Assembly: GCA_963789965.1 (NCBI GenBank)
Contig: CAWBMO010000001.1
Coordinates: 576,010 to 640,009, forward strand
Length of the DNA: 64,000 nt
Direction: 5' to 3'
DNA from: an uncultured Acidobacteriota bacterium
Lineage (GTDB): Bacteria > Acidobacteriota > Vicinamibacteria > Vicinamibacterales > CAVVIG01
Shown here one piece after another: positions 2,228 to 62,032 of the stretch. Position 1 is the stretch's first letter. Each line of letters begins with the position of its first letter. The translations under genes and the position numbers were made by a program. Below the pieces are notes generated by a model. The model saw only the letters and a list, made by a program, of their open reading frames with translations. It did no database searches and was not told the DNA's origin.

Positions 2228-3660
2228 CAGAAGATTGTCGAGATTGACGCGGCCGCCCAGTCGAGCACGCGGGTTGGCAGGATGCCGAGATAGAACACGA
2301 GGACGGCGGAAACCACCAGCGCGAATCCGGCGATCCCCGGCACCGCGGGAAACTGAGCCGGCTGATCGCTCGGCGTCATGTACATCATGACGACGATGCG
2401 CAGGTAGAAGAAGACGGCGACGACGCTCGTCAGGACGCCCAGAATGGCGAGCCAGGTGTAGCCGGCTTTGACCGCGGCGCTGAAGACGTACCATTTGGCG
2501 ATGAATCCGGCGAGCGGCGGAAAGCCTCCGAGCGACAGCAGAAAGATCGTCATGAGGGCGGCCAGCGCTGGATGGTCGCTCCACAGGCCTGCGTAATCCT
2601 GCACGCGATCGTTCGGGCGATTGGCATTGTCGAGCATCGCGATGACGCCAAAGGCGCCGAGGTTGGTGACGGAGTACGCGAGCAGATAGAACAGCACCGC
2701 GCCTTTACCGAGGTCGTTCGCCGCGAGCAGGGCCACAAGGAGGTACCCGCCGTGGGCGATGCTGGAGTACGCGAGCATTCGCTTGACGTTCGACTGCGCC
2801 ACGCCGACCACGGTCCCGACGATCATGGTCGCCGCGGCGACGGCCCACAGGACTGGACCCCACTGCGCCTTGAGCGGCTCGAAGGCCGAAAGAAACACGC
2901 GCGCAAACGCCGCAAACGCGGCGGCCTTCACGCCCGTCGACATGAAGCCGGTGACGGCAGGCGGCGCAGCCTCGTACACGTCTGGCGTCCACATGTGAAA
3001 GGGGACGGCAGACACCTTGAACGCAAATCCGACGAGCAGCAGGCCGAGCGCCAGCAACTGCATCGGCGTGGGCGCCAGCGCCTGCGCGGCAATCAGGCTG
3101 CCGATCCGATCGAGGCGCGTGCTGCCCGTCACGCCATACGTAAACGCGATGCCGTAGAGAAAGAACGCGCTCGAAAACGCGCCGAGAAGAAAATACTTCA
3201 GGGCGGCCTCCGTCCCGAGTGGCGAATCGCGACGGATTCCCGTGAGGACATAGACGGCGAGCGACAGCACTTCGAGCGCGAGAAAGATAAGCAGCAGATC
3301 GGACGCCGTCGCCATCAGCATCATGCCGGCGATGGCAAACAGCATCAGCGCGTAATACTCGCCCTGCGGCAGCCGCTCGCGCTCGACCGTCGGCCCCGAG
3401 AAAGCCAGCGACAGGAGGCCGACGACAATGAGCACCATGGTGACGAACAGGCCGAAATTGTCGGCCTGAACGACGCCGAAGCTCGAGGTGTTGTGGTTCC
3501 ACAAGAGCACGCAGGCGACCGCCGCCCCGGTCAGGCCGATGGCGCCCAGGGGCCCAATCGGCATGCGCTCACCCGGTGCTCGGAACGCTTCGGCGACCAT
3601 CGCGGCAATCGCCGCCGCGGTCACACACAGCATCGGAACGATGGCGTTCAAGGAGGTCAT
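2227..3660 (-). CDS. nuoN: NADH-quinone oxidoreductase subunit N
   Basis: EAALKYFLLG, FKVSAVPFHMWTPDVYE, KRMLAYSSIAH; start overlaps the nuoM stop (ATGA). Confidence 0.96.
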   Translation of the reverse strand: MTSLNAIVPMLCVTAAAIAAMVAEAFRAPGERMPIGPLGAIGLTGAAVACVLLWNHNTSSFGVVQADNFGLFVTMVLIVVGLLSLAFSGPTVERERLPQGEYYALMLFAIAGMMLMATASDLLLIFLALEVLSLAVYVLTGIRRDSPLGTEAALKYFLLGAFSSAFFLYGIAFTYGVTGSTRLDRIGSLIAAQALAPTPMQLLALGLLLVGFAFKVSAVPFHMWTPDVYEAAPPAVTGFMSTGVKAAAFAAFARVFLSAFEPLKAQWGPVLWAVAAATMIVGTVVGVAQSNVKRMLAYSSIAHGGYLLVALLAANDLGKGAVLFYLLAYSVTNLGAFGVIAMLDNANRPNDRVQDYAGLWSDHPALAALMTIFLLSLGGFPPLAGFIAKWYVFSAAVKAGYTWLAILGVLTSVVAVFFYLRIVVMMYMTPSDQPAQFPAVPGIAGFALVVSAVLVFYLGILPTRVLDWAAASISTIF

Positions 3661-56305: not shown

Positions 56306-56507
56306 TGTGTCCTGTTCTGGTTGGAGTTTACGCTGCGAGTCGTTTCCCGTCTAACCAGGTGAAGAACACGCTCGGCAATGACGCCGGGCGGCCGGTTCTG
56401 CCGCGGGTTGCTCAGCATTGCACTGGTGCACCGCTGCACAGGCTCCCCCCGGGCTTGTTAGAGGTCCACGCGGGTTCGGTTTGAGGTCGATAAGAGAAGG
56501 AGGAGTC

Positions 56508-56786
56508 ATGAAGGTGTTACGAGTCATCCCGGCGCTCCTGGCTGCCGGCTGGATCACGGTCAGCGGCATGCAGCCTGTGCTGGCGCAGGTGCAGGCAAAA
56601 CCGACGCGGCCCGAACAGGCCGTGCCCAAACGGCCCGAGCCCGATCGTCCCGATCATCGGCGCCCGCACCGCGACCGGCCGGAGCGTCCCGAACGGCGCG
56701 ATCACGACCGAGGCCGGCCGGATCGTCCGGAGCGAACCGAGCGGCCGGCGAGCGCCGAGCGAGTGGAGCGCTCGGCGAAGCGCTAA
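56508..56786 (+). CDS. Small secreted Arg/Pro/Glu-rich protein
   Basis: Strong RBS (AAGGAGGAG), signal peptide, RPERP repeats. Confidence 0.75.
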   Translation: MKVLRVIPALLAAGWITVSGMQPVLAQVQAKPTRPEQAVPKRPEPDRPDHRRPHRDRPERPERRDHDRGRPDRPERTERPASAERVERSAKR

Positions 56787-57661
56787 TGGCTGGACACAAC
56801 AGGCAGGGCCGCGAGGCCCTGCCTCTCATCATCCATGCGGCGGTTGTCGCCATCCTGATGCTTCTCGCGACGCCGGCCGTTGGCCGCGCGCAGAACGGGC
56901 AATGGCAGTTTGGTTCCGCGCCAAGCTTTTCGAGCGGGAAGTACGGGACCGACGCGCGCACCGAGGTCCTGCACACGCCGATCACCGCCCGTCGTCTGTT
57001 CGGCGACGGTGACGTGACGTTCGTGTTCCCGATCACCTGCATCTGGGGAGACGGCGGCGTGACCGTCGTGAACGGATCGCCAGTCCGGCAGCAGCGGCTC
57101 GCCAACAGTACCGCCGGCAGAGCCGCGACGAGCAGCCGTACTGGTGCTGGTGCTGGCAGCTCCGGATCGGCCCGCAACTGCGGCATGGGCGACGTCGTCG
57201 TCCGCGGTCGCTACTATCTTCTCGACGAACGTAGGTGGCTTCCGACGATCGCACTCCGCGCGCACGTCAAGGCACCGACCGCCAGCGCCGAACGCGGCCT
57301 TGGCACCGGTCGGCCCGATGAGGGAGTTGGACTGGAAATCAGCCGGACCATCGCGGGAGGCACGCTGGCGATGGTGGACGGCGGCTACACCGTCATCGGC
57401 AAGCCTGACGGCGTCGTCTACAACAACAATTGGTGGTACGACGTCGGCATCGGCCAGGACGTGCGGAAGGTCGTCAACGTGAGCGTCTTCTTCGAGGAGT
57501 ACCGCGCCATCGTGCCCGGGCTCGCGAATCCGCGTGACGTGCTCGCGGCCGTGAGCGTGACCGGCGCGAGCGGCTGGCGCTTCCAGGTAGCTGGAGAGTT
57601 CGGTTTGTCCGACGGTGCTCCGGATCACGCGGTCACGTTCGGGACCAGCAAACGATTTTGA
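56786..57661 (+). CDS. Putative outer-membrane beta-barrel
   Basis: Signal peptide, SSGKYG, GMGDV, KAPTA...GLGTG..D, terminal Phe. Confidence 0.72.
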   Translation: MAGHNRQGREALPLIIHAAVVAILMLLATPAVGRAQNGQWQFGSAPSFSSGKYGTDARTEVLHTPITARRLFGDGDVTFVFPITCIWGDGGVTVVNGSPVRQQRLANSTAGRAATSSRTGAGAGSSGSARNCGMGDVVVRGRYYLLDERRWLPTIALRAHVKAPTASAERGLGTGRPDEGVGLEISRTIAGGTLAMVDGGYTVIGKPDGVVYNNNWWYDVGIGQDVRKVVNVSVFFEEYRAIVPGLANPRDVLAAVSVTGASGWRFQVAGEFGLSDGAPDHAVTFGTSKRF

Positions 57662-57684
57662 CCGGTTGCTGAAGAGCGGGCATC

Positions 57685-57719
57685 CAGAAGTCAAAAGTGA
57701 GAAGTCAGAAGTCAGAACT
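57685..57719. repeat. 5 x 7-bp tandem repeat (CAGAAGT) over the ECF start
   Basis: cagaagt caaaagt gagaagt cagaagt cagaact. Confidence 0.75.
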
Positions 57720-58293
57720 GGATCCTGCTCTTGACGACGTGGCGCTCGTTCGAGCCGCGCAGCGCGGGGACCGCGAAGCGTTTGGCGCGCTCGTCTCCCG
57801 CCACGCACCATCGATTCTCAGTCTGACGACGAGGATGCTGGGGCAGACTGCTGACGCGGAAGATGTGGCACAGGAAACGTTCGTCGCGGCGTACAAGGCG
57901 TTGTCGCGTTTTCAGCTCGATTCAAAGTTCTCGACGTGGCTGTATCGGATTGCCGCGAACAAATGTACCGACGCACTCAGGGCCCGGCGTCCTGAAAACA
58001 TTTCTCTCGACGCCACGGGCGACGAAAGCTCGGTCGCGTGGGAGACCGCGAACGAAGAGACGCCGCACCGGGAGTTGGAGCAGGCTGAGCTGGCGTGGGA
58101 GCTCGACACGGCGATCCAGGCGCTGCCGCACCTCTACCGCGAGTCGTTTGTGCTGAAGCATGTTGAAGGTCTAGGCTACGACGAGATGAGCGCCATCCTC
58201 GGCGTGCATCGCGACACTCTCAAGATGCGTGTCTATAAAGCCCGCACGCTGCTCTGCCAATCGCTGGCGCATCTGGACGGGGCGCCCCGATGA
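57697..58293 (+). CDS. ECF sigma factor
   Basis: DAEDVAQETF, FSTWLYRIAAN, region 4 GLGYDEMS..LG...TLKMRV. Confidence 0.93.
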   Translation: MRSQKSELDPALDDVALVRAAQRGDREAFGALVSRHAPSILSLTTRMLGQTADAEDVAQETFVAAYKALSRFQLDSKFSTWLYRIAANKCTDALRARRPENISLDATGDESSVAWETANEETPHRELEQAELAWELDTAIQALPHLYRESFVLKHVEGLGYDEMSAILGVHRDTLKMRVYKARTLLCQSLAHLDGAPR

Positions 58294-59003
58294 AAGGAAA
58301 GGCATTCGACATGATCGACTCCGAGCAGCTCGTGCAGCGGTTTGTCGACCAGGAGCTCTCCGCCGAAGAGCGCGTGCGATTCGTCGCGCGGCTGGGGCGG
58401 GACGAGGGGCTGCGCCAGCGGGCGATCGAGCTCGAGCAGCTCGTGCTCGGCGTCAGCCGGCTGCCCCGGCCGGCGGTGCCCGATGGGTTCGTCGCCGCCG
58501 TGTTGGAACGGACCGCTCCAGCGCCGTCGATCTGGCGCACGCTCGCCGACGCACTCTGGGCGCCGCGCGATCTTCAGTGGAATCTGGCGAGCGCCGTTAC
58601 CTGTCTCGCCTTGCTCGTTGCGGGTGGCGTCGTCGCTGGGCGTCTGGCCGTCGGACCCGGCCAGCCCGCAGTGACACCAAGCGCGGCCGACACCCCCGTT
58701 GCCGCTGCAGCCTCCGCGTCGACCGTGCTCGTTCGACTGGTCATCCTGCAGCCCGGCGCGAGAACCGTGCAGGTTGCCGGCGACTTCAACGGGTGGAACC
58801 CCGCGCGCACGTCACTCGAACAGATTTCCGACGGTGCGTGGGCAGTGACCATTCCCCTCAAGCCAGGACGCTACGAATACAGTTTCGTTGTGGACGGCCA
58901 ACAGTGGATCGCCGACCCGTTTGCCGCCGAGCAGAGCGACGACGGGTTTGGATCGCGGAACGCGGTGCTCGATGTGAGTCCGCAGTTGGGGGCACAATCA
59001 TGA
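58290..59003 (+). CDS. Putative anti-sigma factor with TM helix and C-terminal CBM48/AMPK-beta glycogen-binding domain
   Basis: FVDQELS N-terminus, TM helix, VQVAGDFNGW, LKPGRYEYSFVVDG.QW..DP, DGFG..N. Confidence 0.85.
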   Translation: MKGKAFDMIDSEQLVQRFVDQELSAEERVRFVARLGRDEGLRQRAIELEQLVLGVSRLPRPAVPDGFVAAVLERTAPAPSIWRTLADALWAPRDLQWNLASAVTCLALLVAGGVVAGRLAVGPGQPAVTPSAADTPVAAAASASTVLVRLVILQPGARTVQVAGDFNGWNPARTSLEQISDGAWAVTIPLKPGRYEYSFVVDGQQWIADPFAAEQSDDGFGSRNAVLDVSPQLGAQS

Positions 59004-59045
59004 CGCGTTGCTTGTCCGACAGGCCTCGATTAGGCTCCAGTGGCT

Positions 59046-59414
59046 ATGCCTGCAAGGTTATCTGGGGCGCTTGCGGCGACATTCGTCGCGGTGATGATGG
59101 GTACATCGTGCGCGGGAAGAATTGCGCCGGCGGCGCCCATCGCCACGCCGGCGGGCGTGCGGTTCGTGCTGATGCGACCCGAGGCGCGCAGCGTGGCGCT
59201 GGCCGGCAGCTTCAATCAATGGTCGGCAACCTCGTATCCCCTCGTGCGCGACGGATCACGTGGGCTCTGGACAGTCGTCGTTCCGTTGGCTCCCGGCGAG
59301 CATCTCTTCATGTATGTTGTGGACGGCACCGAGTGGGTCAGCCCGCCGCTTGCCGAGGACTACGTGGATGATGGGTTCGGTGCGAAGAATGGAGTCGTGG
59401 TTGTCCGGCCGTGA
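59046..59414 (+). CDS. CBM48/glycogen-binding-domain lipoprotein
   Basis: Lipobox-like GTSC; VALAGSFNQW, LAPGEH..MYVVDG..W, DDGFG.KN. Confidence 0.82.
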   Translation: MPARLSGALAATFVAVMMGTSCAGRIAPAAPIATPAGVRFVLMRPEARSVALAGSFNQWSATSYPLVRDGSRGLWTVVVPLAPGEHLFMYVVDGTEWVSPPLAEDYVDDGFGAKNGVVVVRP

Positions 59415-59433
59415 CCTGAAAGCACTACGGGCC

Positions 59434-60216
59434 GTGACCTTCGTGGTAGTGGTGTGTCTATCGCTTGGCGGCCTGGCTACGTCCACCCTTTCCGCCGCGC
59501 AGTCGGCGTCGGCTTCCGACCGCGAAGCGCTCGACCGTCTGGTCGCGGAGGCAGCGGCGAAAGGACTGCCGGCTGCTCCGCTGACGAACAAGATCCAGGA
59601 AGGGTTCGCAAAGGGCGCGGACCCGAAGCGGATCGAGCTCGTGGTGCGTCAGATGGCGACTAATCTCGAGACCGCCGATCGACTCGTGCGCGAGATCGAG
59701 CCGGCGTCAGCGGGCGCGGGACGTGAGACGTCGGTGACGCTGCTGGCGGAGTCGATCGGAAGCGGTGTCACCACCGACGAAGTGCGCCAGCTCCAAAAGA
59801 CTGCGCAGGTGTCGGGAAAGCCACCGTTGACGGCCGACGCGGTGGCCAGTGCGGCAAAGGGGTTGTCTTTTATTAAAGACGCCCGACTCCCGGTGGCCGA
59901 CGGCACCGCCGTGATTGCCGAGGCAGTGAAGCAGGGATTCCGATCGCGCGAGATTCTCGATCTGGGACGCGAGGTCAAGCGCCGTGAAGCCGACTACCGA
60001 GCCGGTCGCGCCAGCCTGCGGGCATTGCGGGATGCCATCGCGCGCGGGGATCGTTCAGACCAATTGTTCCGCGACAGCCGAAGCGATGCCGTCGAGCGGC
60101 CTGCGGCAACGCGACCAGAGACGCAGGTCGATCGGCCGGCGGCTCGTCCCGAGGCCCCGCAACGTCCGGAACAACCCGTACGTCCCGAGCGTCCTTCCAC
60201 CGGGCGCGATCGGTAG
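59434..60216 (+). CDS. Secreted helical hypothetical protein with RPERP-like tail
   Basis: Signal peptide, GLP..PL.NKIQEG.AKG; start approximate. Confidence 0.7.
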   Translation: MTFVVVVCLSLGGLATSTLSAAQSASASDREALDRLVAEAAAKGLPAAPLTNKIQEGFAKGADPKRIELVVRQMATNLETADRLVREIEPASAGAGRETSVTLLAESIGSGVTTDEVRQLQKTAQVSGKPPLTADAVASAAKGLSFIKDARLPVADGTAVIAEAVKQGFRSREILDLGREVKRREADYRAGRASLRALRDAIARGDRSDQLFRDSRSDAVERPAATRPETQVDRPAARPEAPQRPEQPVRPERPSTGRDR

Positions 60217-60540: not shown

Positions 60541-60612
60541 CACGAACCAGGGACAGAAGACGGACCAAGGACCAGGAACGGACCAGGAACCAGGGCCCAA
60601 GGACCAGGGACT
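60541..60612. repeat. GGACCA(A/G) tandem repeat
   Basis: cggaccaaggaccaggaacggaccaggaaccagggcccaaggaccagggac. Confidence 0.75.
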
Positions 60613-60742
60613 GAGCTGTTTGGCGTAAAGACGCCGCGTTACAAACCTCGTCGGTCCTGTCCAAGACTTGCAATCGTCCACGTCCGGGGTCCTGGAATCT
60701 GGCGTGGAATGGCCCAATCTCCTGGCACACGTCTTGGGGGTT

Positions 60743-62032
60743 ATGGCGGACGTGCTCGCCTTTCTGGCTCTATTAATGGTCCTCGGCCTGGTCTTTACGG
60801 CCATGGCCCCCCAGGCGCGCGAGGAGATCGGTCATGCGGCGCTGGCTGCCATCAGGCGCGTCAGGCAGGAAGCTACCCGCAACCGCCCTGAGTGCGAGCA
60901 GTTCCGGGCAGCCCTCCGCGAGCGGACCCGGTGGGCGCTCGTCACCCCGGCTCTCATTGCTCTGAACGTGACGGTCTTCGTCCTGATGCTCTCGGGCACC
61001 GGCGCCCTCAGCGATCCCGCGACGCTGGCCGGTTGGGGCGGCAATTTCTGGCTGCGAACGAGGAACGGCGAGTGGTGGCGTCTGGTCACCTCGATCTTCG
61101 TGCACGCGGGAATGCTTCACCTTCTCGTCAACGTCGCCGGACTCGCCCAGATCGGCTTCATCCTGGAGCGTCTGGTCGGCCGCGCAATCGTCATCGCCGT
61201 GTTCCTGGCGGCGGGGATCTTTGCGAGTCTGGTCAACCTCGCCACGTATCCGATGGCCACCGGCGTTGGTGCATCCGGTGCCGTCTTCGGACTCTACGGC
61301 CTGCTGCTCGCCTCGTCGATCTGGGGCATCCGGCACCGCTCGAACGTCACGATGCCGCTGACGACGGTGAAAATGCTCCTCCCGGCTACGGCGGTCTTCA
61401 TCCTGTACAACCTGGCGACCGACAGCCTGGGAAGCGCGGCCGAGTTCACCGGGCTTCTCGTGGGGCTGGTGTGCGGGGCAGGCCTTACAAAAGGTGTCAG
61501 CGATCGCAAGCCAGCCGCACGTCGCGTCGCCCATCTCACGGCGGCCACGGTCGTGATTGCCGTGCTCTCTGCGATCCCTCTGCGTGGAATCACCGACGTC
61601 AAACCGGAGCTCGAACGAACGGTCGCGGCCGAAGATCGCATGGCCGCTGCGTATCGAGAGGCGGCCGGGCAGTTCAGAAACGACCGGGTGACAGCCGACG
61701 CGCTGGCTCTCTTGATCGATCGAAAAATCATTCCCGAGCTGCAGGTCACCGACCAACGGCTGAAGGCGCTGGTTGGAGTGCCGAAAGAACATCAGCCGCT
61801 CATCGCGACCGCTGAGGAGTACGTGCGGCTGCGGTCCGAAAGCTGGCGCCTTCGGTCCGAATGGCTGCGCAAGGCTGGCAGAGTCCCGGCGCGAGGAGGC
61901 GAAGCCGCTCTGCACAGGGCCAACATGCGCACGATCGCACAGGCGGAGGAAACCGAGCGGGCGGCGCTCGAAGCCCTCGAGAGAATTCGGTCAGCCGGCG
62001 CCGAAGCGACCGAGGCGAGTGCGAGGCCGTAG
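60743..62032 (+). CDS. Rhomboid-family intramembrane protease homolog with C-terminal helical domain
   Basis: GEWWRLVTSIFVH, HLLVN, GASGAVFG; start uncertain. Confidence 0.85.
   Translation: MADVLAFLALLMVLGLVFTAMAPQAREEIGHAALAAIRRVRQEATRNRPECEQFRAALRERTRWALVTPALIALNVTVFVLMLSGTGALSDPATLAGWGGNFWLRTRNGEWWRLVTSIFVHAGMLHLLVNVAGLAQIGFILERLVGRAIVIAVFLAAGIFASLVNLATYPMATGVGASGAVFGLYGLLLASSIWGIRHRSNVTMPLTTVKMLLPATAVFILYNLATDSLGSAAEFTGLLVGLVCGAGLTKGVSDRKPAARRVAHLTAATVVIAVLSAIPLRGITDVKPELERTVAAEDRMAAAYREAAGQFRNDRVTADALALLIDRKIIPELQVTDQRLKALVGVPKEHQPLIATAEEYVRLRSESWRLRSEWLRKAGRVPARGGEAALHRANMRTIAQAEETERAALEALERIRSAGAEATEASARP

Follow-up and report, generated by a model that had tools for sequence, protein, structure and literature searches.

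A candidate envelope-signalling operon with paired CBM48-type domains around an ECF sigma factor in an uncultured Acidobacteriota bacterium

Introduction

Six genes (g1 to g6) at positions 56508-60216 on the + strand of a 64,000-nt stretch of DNA from an uncultured Acidobacteriota bacterium (contig CAWBMO010000001.1; the whole stretch is referred to below as the window) raise the question of what an extracytoplasmic function (ECF) sigma factor responds to when its putative anti-sigma factor carries, outside the cytoplasm, a predicted domain of the CBM48/AMPK-beta type. Judged by its sequence, the locus is an uncharacterised variant of ECF envelope signalling, and its gene set is real and widely conserved. 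We consider it probable that the six genes make up an envelope-signalling operon that is self-contained and activates itself, with an RpoE-like ECF sigma factor and a single-pass anti-sigma factor at its centre, and we read the module as a monitor of the state of the envelope rather than as a nutrient sensor for starch.

Pairs of ECF sigma and anti-sigma factors constitute the third major mode of bacterial signalling. To our knowledge, the input signals of most of these pairs are not known, and regulation in Nitrospira, Acidobacteriota and Gemmatimonadota has hardly been explored. The module is abundant and is found in these groups, which are important in soil and water and include the nitrifiers of the genus Nitrospira. 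In its predicted anatomy, one and the same binding fold is present at either side of the periplasm, and the identity of the ligand would show whether bacteria reuse the glycogen-sensing fold of AMPK as a sensor outside the cytoplasm. Several unnamed protein families would gain a function as well, and the system is small enough to be tested with a few purified domains.

Results and Discussion

Gene content and layout of the operon

The six genes are arranged with near-zero spacing and some overlaps, and a motif match precedes them. The annotated features are as follows.

56326-56354, + strand: match to the motif GTTTAC-N16-CGTCTAA, a putative ECF-type promoter about 150 nt upstream of g1
56508-56786, + strand: g1, predicted secreted, intrinsically disordered Arg/Pro/Glu-repeat protein of 92 aa (composition, N-terminal hydrophobic segment)
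56786-57661, + strand: g2, predicted outer-membrane beta-barrel of the FapF/COG4313 (Phenol_MetA_deg) type, 291 aa (AlphaFold2 model, Foldseek, family profile)
57697-58293, + strand: g3, ECF (group 4) sigma factor, RpoE/AlgU/SigW-like, 198 aa (Pfam, TIGR02937, nearest solved chains)
58290-59003, + strand: g4, putative single-pass anti-sigma factor of 237 aa (Pfam, transmembrane segment, gene context)
within g4: cytoplasmic part, residues 1-95; transmembrane helix, residues 99-117 (nt 58584-58640); extracytoplasmic CBM48/AMPK-beta-type domain, residues ~147-231 (nt 58728-58982)
59040-59414, + strand: g5, predicted lipoprotein of 124 aa with one CBM48/AMPK-beta-type domain (Pfam, lipobox)
59389-60216, + strand: g6, predicted secreted all-helical protein of 275 aa with a disordered Arg/Pro/Glu tail (AlphaFold2 model)

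The final base of the g1 stop codon TAA is the A of the g2 start codon (TAATG, an overlap of 1 nt), and g3 and g4 overlap by 4 nt (ATGA). The gaps between g2 and g3 and between g4 and g5 are 35 and 36 nt, respectively, and g6 starts inside the end of g5, either at an ATG at 59389 or at an alternative TTG at 59401. The first-pass annotation of the window had described six co-oriented, tightly packed and partly overlapping genes that encode an ECF sigma/anti-sigma pair with an extracytoplasmic CBM48, a second CBM48 on a lipoprotein and an outer-membrane barrel; all of these elements were recovered here.

Sigma factor and anti-sigma factor

The g3 product is a short sigma factor of 198 aa that matches Sigma70_r2 (4.6e-21) and Sigma70_r4_2 (1.8e-11) in Pfam, has no region 3 or region 1.1, and scores 105.2 bits with TIGR02937 against a cut-off of 42.9. 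The solved chains closest to it are 6in7 (9e-29), E. coli sigma-E 1or7 (2.3e-27) and SigW 5wuq (2.6e-27). A named ECF identity (RpoE, SigW or AlgU) was not reached with the NCBIfam equivalogs, whose best score was 139 bits where 204-243 would be required. The annotated GTG start of g3 lies within a 7-nt tandem repeat (CAGAAGT, 4.7 copies) at 57685-57717, and the true start may be downstream of the annotated one.

The g4 product has one strong hydrophobic 19-mer at residues 99-117, and a single segment of transmembrane grade is found in 17/17 aligned members of the family. The 95 residues ahead of the helix are charged and contain neither His nor Cys; the zinc-binding H-x3-C-x2-C motif of the ZAS subclass is absent, with no His or Cys in residues 1-60. 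The single helix, together with a gene that directly follows the sigma gene and is coupled to it through ATGA, agrees with class I anti-sigma factors of the RseA/RsiW type, and homologues of g4 carry the name 'anti-sigma factor RsiW' in one source.

Among the closest known systems are those of the sigma factors nearest to g3 among solved structures, namely RpoE-RseA-RseB-RseC in E. coli, AlgU-MucA-MucB in P. aeruginosa and SigW-RsiW in B. subtilis. They share with the present locus the order of sigma factor, single-pass anti-sigma factor and periplasmic accessory proteins. However, the periplasmic domain of g4 has a predicted CBM48 fold and not an RseA or RsiW domain, and neither Pfam nor NCBIfam relates g5 and g6 to RseB and RseC.

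Conservation across genomes

Relatives of g4 comprise at least 827 protein clusters at E <= 0.001 among 8000 candidates scored. Among the 120 matches listed, all carry both CBM Pfam families, and one (P0057) is labelled Vicinamibacterales. When contigs from one genome per species were considered, at least 450 genomes had a confirmed relative among 600 pattern matches, and the best 80 of these at least 450 confirmed loci were compared. By labels assigned by hand, the 80 loci belong to Nitrospirota (44), Gemmatimonadota (12), Acidobacteriota (11), Balneolaceae (3), 'delta proteobacterium' (3), Anaeromyxobacteraceae (2) and others (5). Presence was counted with hidden Markov models built from our own alignments and searched over all six-frame open reading frames (ORFs) of the 80 loci:

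sigma gene adjacent to the g4 relative, directly upstream: 75/80 loci
g6 homologue beside the sigma/anti-sigma pair: 72/80 loci
second CBM48 as an ORF or domain: 67/80 loci
g2-family barrel: 46/80 loci, 44 of which have it immediately upstream in the same orientation
barrel N-domain of the fused form (see below): 13/80 loci

Sequence of at least 1500 nt downstream of the anti-sigma gene is available in 68/80 loci and of at least 1600 nt upstream in 69/80, and several of the misses are contig ends because the flanks are short in some loci. For instance, six of the eight loci without g6 end within ~500 nt, and two (L078 and L080) truly lack it. The first-pass annotation had proposed neighbourhood conservation across phyla as a check, which these counts bear out; that g6 is the most constant partner of the pair had escaped it.

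Three layouts were distinguished. In Acidobacteriota and most Nitrospirota, the order is (g1)-g2-sigma-anti-sigma-g5-g6, and the arrangement exceeds chance because the same gene set and order recurs in these two phyla. In Gemmatimonadota, Balneolaceae and one delta-type locus, sigma and anti-sigma genes are followed by a gene for a fused protein and by g6. The fused protein has 366-458 aa in the 10 proteins aligned and consists of an N-domain of ~280 residues and a C-terminal CBM48. In the third layout (L049, L050, L052 and L070), a small CBM48 protein is encoded upstream of the sigma gene.

The ESM Atlas model of the fused N-domain aligns with models of a porin, YaiO and other barrels at a TM-score of 0.6-0.8, and the nearest clusters in the ESM Atlas, with 736 and 68 members, carry AMPK1_CBM. 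This fusion of a predicted barrel to CBM48 argues that the second CBM48 of the module belongs at the outer membrane, on the side that faces the periplasm. A common origin of the g2 barrel and the barrel of the fused protein was considered and rejected (hhalign probability 0.5%), and the two are treated as analogous.

CBM48 domains and their binding face

The C-terminus of g4 matches AMPK1_CBM (2.2e-11, 44.3 bits against a cut-off of 26.8) and CBM_48 (1.7e-8, 35.1 against 22.4); at E <= 0.01, a weak X25 match is the sole addition in Pfam. The g5 domain matches AMPK1_CBM (1.4e-9, 38.4 against 26.8 bits) and CBM_48 (1.6e-9, 38.4 against 22.4 bits) and is a paralogue of the g4 domain, with 39-52% identity in tblastn cross-hits. 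The g5 signal sequence ends in G-T-S-C24, and the lipobox Cys24, preceded by A, S or G, is invariant in 24/24 aligned orthologues, which marks g5 as a predicted lipoprotein.

The best solved relatives of both domains are GH13 pullulanase, AMPK beta and GlgB. The g5 profile aligns to the entire AMPK beta CBM (1z0n 9.6e-9, 4y0g 2.8e-9; range over AMPK beta 2.8e-9 to 2.2e-8), and g4 aligns to its first two thirds. In contrast to this module of AMPK beta (1z0n, 4y0g), which belongs to the same fold family, the g4 and g5 domains are predicted to be extracytoplasmic and tethered to a membrane. They also carry a D-G-F-G-x-x-N signature that they share with the N-terminal domain of an archaeal pullulanase (5ot1) rather than with AMPK beta.

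According to a review of AMPK (PMC6274970), the substitutions W100G and K126Q abolish glycogen binding by the beta1 subunit and W133L and G147R weaken it, and mutation of W100, W133, K126, residue 146 (the review prints L148A) and T148 removes inhibition by glycogen. The equivalent residues, mapped through profile alignments of g4 and g5, are as follows.

AMPK W100: g4 W169 and g5 W61, invariant (17/17 g4 relatives; 24/24 g5 orthologues)
AMPK W133: g4 W206 and g5 W99, invariant (17/17; 24/24)
AMPK L146: g4 F220 and g5 F113, kept as Phe
AMPK G147: g4 G221 and g5 G114, kept
AMPK N150: g4 N224 and g5 N117, kept
AMPK K126: g4 S198 (Met or Gln in relatives) and g5 M91, lost
AMPK T148: equivalent position variable

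By this mapping, the aromatic platform is retained and one essential polar contact is gone. Kept tryptophans with a lost lysine are compatible with a glycan ligand, not necessarily an alpha-glucan, or with another partner that stacks on tryptophan. A complex prediction for g4 (residues 140-237) with g5 (residues 25-124) scored 0.00 in two runs without controls and is evidence neither way.

The genome contains three AMPK1_CBM matches, two of which are g4 and g5. The third (L089, 1424-2557; contig C6, ~842.9-844.1 kb; 40.8 bits) forms the C-terminus of a 377-aa cytoplasmic protein with an N-terminal ParA/MinD-like KGGxGKT Walker motif, recognised by eye; this protein may be an ATPase that positions glycogen granules.

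Barrel g2 and repeat protein g1

The AlphaFold2 model of g2 (mean pLDDT 83.7) shows a signal helix at residues 11-32, beta-strands that begin at residue 40 and continue up to the Arg-Phe at the C-terminus, and a single disordered Gly/Ser/Thr loop of 23 residues (105-127). With Foldseek, the model matches FapF (E 7.7e-13 to 1e-11, TM-score 0.58-0.67) and the COG4313 channel 4rl8 (E 1.1e-7, TM-score 0.62-0.67), and the family profile also matches FapF by sequence (E 1.8e-4). The score with PF13557 is 20.4 bits for g2 itself, just under the cut-off of 22, and 40.6 bits for its Nitrospira orthologue in locus L013. The model thus identifies g2 as a true outer-membrane barrel of the FapF/COG4313 type.

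The g1 protein has one N-terminal hydrophobic segment and a predicted mature part of 65 residues, 44 of which are Arg (18), Pro (12), Glu (8) or Asp (6); no Pfam or NCBIfam family matches it. ORFs with a signal peptide and RPE repeats occur at the position of g1 upstream of the barrel in 10/17 loci by a composition filter, and also in L001 by tblastn. The Nitrospira homologues in L011, L013, L025 and L039 (~2460-3180) are longer, at ~200-240 aa, with a heptad-like DRREDRQ run before the RPERPE repeats and an end in SGRN or AGRN.

Both g2 and fapF are preceded by a gene whose product is secreted and unfolded, and g2 shares its barrel fold with FapF (5o65, 5o67, 5o68) and the COG4313 channel Pput2725 (4rl8), as well as PF13557 through its orthologue. 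FapF is described as a plugged 12-stranded barrel that passes unfolded substrates and needs a periplasmic coiled coil for secretion (PMC5557850). In contrast, neither an N-terminal coiled coil nor a helical plug region was found before the barrel in the g2 model, where the signal helix alone precedes the first strand, and no Fap partners are present. The putative substrate is likewise a charged Arg/Pro/Glu repeat and not an amyloid repeat, and g2 adds the Gly/Ser/Thr loop. Export of g1 through g2 may occur; it stays a hypothesis because g2 lacks the coiled coil that FapF needs.

In L005, L033 and L048, the module is followed 3-5 kb downstream by another barrel gene of the g2 family, which is on the opposite strand in the latter two. 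The sole g2-family copy is downstream and on the opposite strand in L010 and L021.

Helical protein g6

The AlphaFold2 model of g6 (mean pLDDT 86.2 over the whole protein) has a folded all-helical part at residues 41-225, where block values are mostly 93-98. One hydrophobic, signal-like segment is found at the N-terminus, and the 43-residue tail includes 9 Arg, 9 Pro, 5 Glu and 3 Asp. The gene occurs once in its genome and belongs to a family without a name: there is no match in Pfam or NCBIfam, none at E <= 0.001 in a Foldseek search of the PDB, a best E of 0.038 for the family profile against PDB sequences, and unnamed clusters only (at 0.87) in the ESM Atlas. Structural relatives proposed by VIA-align, small helical bundles and designed repeats with a best Z of 6.3, were set aside as below the meaningful level for helical proteins.

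The Arg/Pro/Glu repeats of g1 are shared by the g6 tails in Acidobacteriota and in many of the aligned Nitrospirota orthologues; elsewhere, the tails are rich in Gly/Pro/Lys, Gly/Met/Ser, Gly or Pro. That the tryptophans of the CBM48 domains might recognise Pro-rich tails of g6 was considered; the Gly/Met/Ser- or Gly-rich tails of several lineages weaken this idea. Most tails of the aligned Nitrospirota orthologues end in GRD(H/R). One longer protein (689 aa, PQQ repeats, 44% coverage) looked like a fused form of g6 and is probably a gene-calling join.

Candidate promoter and regulon

The window contains the motif GTTTAC-N16-CGTCTAA once, in the spacer ahead of g1, and 100 shuffles contain none. 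It occurs in 33/80 loci of two phyla, where 49 of its 51 matches are on the gene strand, and the spacer between barrel and sigma genes in Nitrospira contains a conserved TGTTTAC-N16-CGTCTAAT. In the supplement of a published ECF classification (PMC7826278), the -10 element predicted for ECF279 is identical to that of the present motif, and the one of ECF281 is similar. In the genome of the present bacterium (an assembly of 4.19 Mb), the full -10 element was found at the operon's own copy only. Within the visible sequence, the predicted target of the sigma factor is thus its own operon. A look for sequencing runs that contain this DNA listed none from RNA; the best DNA runs share 0.43 and 0.33 of the sampled words.

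Many Nitrospira loci (L013, L026 and others) contain a second copy of the motif further upstream. In L013 (415-2394), this copy precedes two extra lipoprotein genes ahead of a g1-like gene and the barrel, which suggests that the Nitrospira version of the operon is larger. The two lipoproteins have 146 aa, without a family, and 483 aa, with six DUF5666 repeats.

Relation to described systems

The idea of a glycogen-type sensor on an anti-sigma factor is already in print. A short in-silico note on ECF278s1 (Casas-Pastor 2021, supplement of PMC7826278) reports a periplasmic AMPK-type domain and suggests glycogen sensing; the main text of that paper does not mention the idea, other groups of that classification may be described in similar terms, and full-text searches found no paper on the module. 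The first-pass annotation had stated that no functional characterisation was known. This holds insofar as the ECF278s1 text is in-silico only, and the sensor proposal itself is not new. As in ECF278, a putative anti-sigma factor with one transmembrane helix and a periplasmic AMPK glycogen-recognition domain is encoded at position +1, a description that fits g4. However, the promoter predicted for ECF278 is GTGAC (-35)/GTATA (-10), unlike GTTTAC-N16-CGTCTAA here, and ECF278 was described from Desulfovibrio, Syntrophobacter and Chloracidobacterium, whereas the relatives here are from Vicinamibacterales and Nitrospira. No conserved context genes are listed in the ECF278 text of the supplement; here, four further genes are conserved. 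The accessory genes, the conservation across phyla, the barrel fusion and the promoter are likewise not part of that text.

A precedent for carbohydrate-module sensors on anti-sigma factors is provided by SigI/RsgI of Clostridium thermocellum, in which the anti-sigma factor relays an extracellular polysaccharide signal across the membrane (PMC10328401). That system has features of its own, namely the SigI family, an autoproteolytic periplasmic domain with an Asn-Pro site, a Gram-positive host and an output of cellulosome genes. Pfam detects no RsgI domain in g4, and no enzyme output was seen at this operon.

Proposed mechanism

In the resting state of the envelope-signalling operon that we favour, g4 would hold g3 at the inner membrane. 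The anatomy of the proteins suggests a sensory part made up of the periplasmic CBM48 of g4, the CBM48 on the side of the outer membrane and g6. Altered binding at the twin-tryptophan face would expose g4 to stepwise proteolysis, as in RseA or RsiW, and the ligand could be a glycan polymer of the envelope or the environment, or a partner protein. RpoE, AlgU and SigW are controlled by proteolysis of single-pass anti-sigma factors, and we propose this step because of the likeness to RpoE/RseA, AlgU/MucA and SigW/RsiW; by analogy with them, release is probably by regulated proteolysis. The freed sigma factor would transcribe its own operon, so that the main output would be further synthesis of these envelope proteins, among them the barrel and a repeat protein that is possibly exported.

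Several points weigh against this scheme. Direct domain evidence for the N-terminus of g4 is weak, with sub-threshold matches to NF052375 (26.6 bits, cut-off 100) and zf-HC2 (E 0.036; 14.6 bits, cut-off 22.2), and the g4 family profile found no solved anti-sigma factor; the identity of g4 as an anti-sigma factor rests on context for this reason. There is no protease gene within the six-gene cluster. The relaxed motif GTTTAC-N15-17-CGTC shows no enrichment in the genome (12 matches; reversed control, 14), and a search with it found no further regulon members in this assembly, which is 76.5% complete and from which more promoter copies or regulon members may be absent. Promoter function, autoregulation and co-transcription are all read from nucleotide sequence alone, and the invariant tryptophans could be kept for structure.

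Alternative explanations

The first-pass annotation had read the locus as a detector of periplasmic alpha-glucans, with g5 as a co-receptor and the barrel as a channel. In such a model, the CBM48 domains would bind periplasmic or imported maltodextrin or glycogen-like polymers, the barrel would admit the glucan and binding would release the sigma factor. An alpha-glucan as the ligand within the general scheme above is possible, though doubtful, and the complete model is unlikely. Both domains pass the curated AMPK1_CBM and CBM_48 cut-offs and have GH13 pullulanase, AMPK beta and GlgB as closest solved relatives; the equivalents of W100, W133, L146, G147 and N150 are kept, and mutation of the two tryptophans impairs glycogen binding (PMC6274970). 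The same idea was written for ECF278s1 (PMC7826278 supplement), and RsgI shows that anti-sigma factors can sense polysaccharides (PMC10328401). The platform tryptophans thus speak for this interpretation, but the position of K126, where K126Q abolishes binding in AMPK beta1 (PMC6274970), is Ser in g4 and Met in g5. No glycoside hydrolase, glycogen enzyme or sugar transporter was found among 68 flanking ORFs scanned, out of 95 chosen from 15 loci of all lineages; the 27 left out were mostly the farthest from the module or already scanned. The flanking genes differ from locus to locus in this set, and the single GH13 match of the genome (Alpha-amylase, PF00128) is on another contig (C6, 66286-66501). 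The earlier remark that no glycoside hydrolase lies nearby is thereby extended to related loci, and both the flanking context and the location of the lone GH13 on another contig speak against a sensor of starch as a nutrient. In this genome, only the operon itself carries the full promoter motif, which implies no catabolic output. The barrel, which had been proposed as a glucan channel, groups with FapF and COG4313 and not with known glucan channels, and no maltoporin-like or CymA-like match was obtained, which leaves this part of the proposal without support.

The FapF likeness invites a different account, which we regard as rather unlikely: in the Acidobacteriota and Nitrospirota version, g1 and perhaps the g6 tail would be exported through the barrel, and the sigma factor, anti-sigma factor and CBM48 proteins would be its dedicated regulator. 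The one-base overlap of g1 and g2, which are neighbours in both phyla, fits this account, as do the signal-peptide-like N-terminus of g1, its lack of a foldable part, the promoter motif upstream of it and the FapF structures closest to g2 (E 7.7e-13), which pass unfolded substrates (PMC5557850). However, g2 starts its first strand at residue 40 without the coiled coil essential to FapF, and the equally similar COG4313 channel is no protein exporter. Furthermore, the loci of Gemmatimonadota, Balneolaceae and delta type keep the sigma factor, the anti-sigma factor, CBM48 and g6 but have neither g1 nor g2, and export therefore cannot be the core function. The most constant partner, g6 (72/80 loci), has no other recognisable function and is central to a further, quite improbable possibility, namely that the CBM48 domains have lost sugar binding and link the outer membrane (g5 or the barrel-fused domain) to the inner membrane (g4) through g6 or through each other. 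The signal would then be loss of the link to the outer membrane, in the manner of RcsF-IgaA or FecA-FecR. Within the kinase complex, the CBM of AMPK beta contacts protein as well. The lysine that AMPK requires is missing, and the second CBM48 appears to be anchored towards the outer membrane; it follows a barrel in the same chain in the 10 aligned proteins, and the barrel N-domain is present in 13/80 loci. Against such a link, the tails of g6 differ in kind between lineages (Arg/Pro/Glu, Gly/Met/Ser, Gly-rich, Pro-rich), the invariant tryptophans of exposed type are what a sugar site would keep, and sequence does not decide in which membrane g5 resides.

The least probable proposal is a gauge across the envelope, in which the outer-membrane CBM48 and its paralogue in g4 would both grip one periplasmic partner, either a glycan strand or g6. 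Lost contact with the outer membrane or a changed geometry of the periplasm would free the sigma factor, and the FapF-like channel would export the (Arg-Pro-Glu)n protein, a rod-like polyampholyte, to reinforce or coat the envelope. If true, the fold that binds glycogen would have a novel use here, and Nitrospira, Acidobacteriota and Gemmatimonadota would possess a novel type of circuit for envelope integrity.

Neighbouring genes

Scans for sigma-70 promoters returned none, and a scan for intrinsic terminators gave 4 terminator-like sites with 3.6 expected. A methyltransferase gene lies upstream of the operon in the opposite orientation. The next gene downstream starts at 60668 and encodes a rhomboid protease (Pfam 4.7e-23), which has a counterpart beside the module in none of the 80 related loci. 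The remaining features in this part of the window are as follows.

60542-60611: tandem repeats of 7 and 18 nt (GGACCAA) ahead of the rhomboid gene
60668-62032, + strand: rhomboid-family protease with a helical C-terminal extension of ~180 residues
62045-63427, - strand: TPR-repeat protein (TPR_2 2e-15) with an N-terminal EGREGREGQEGREGQKGR repeat

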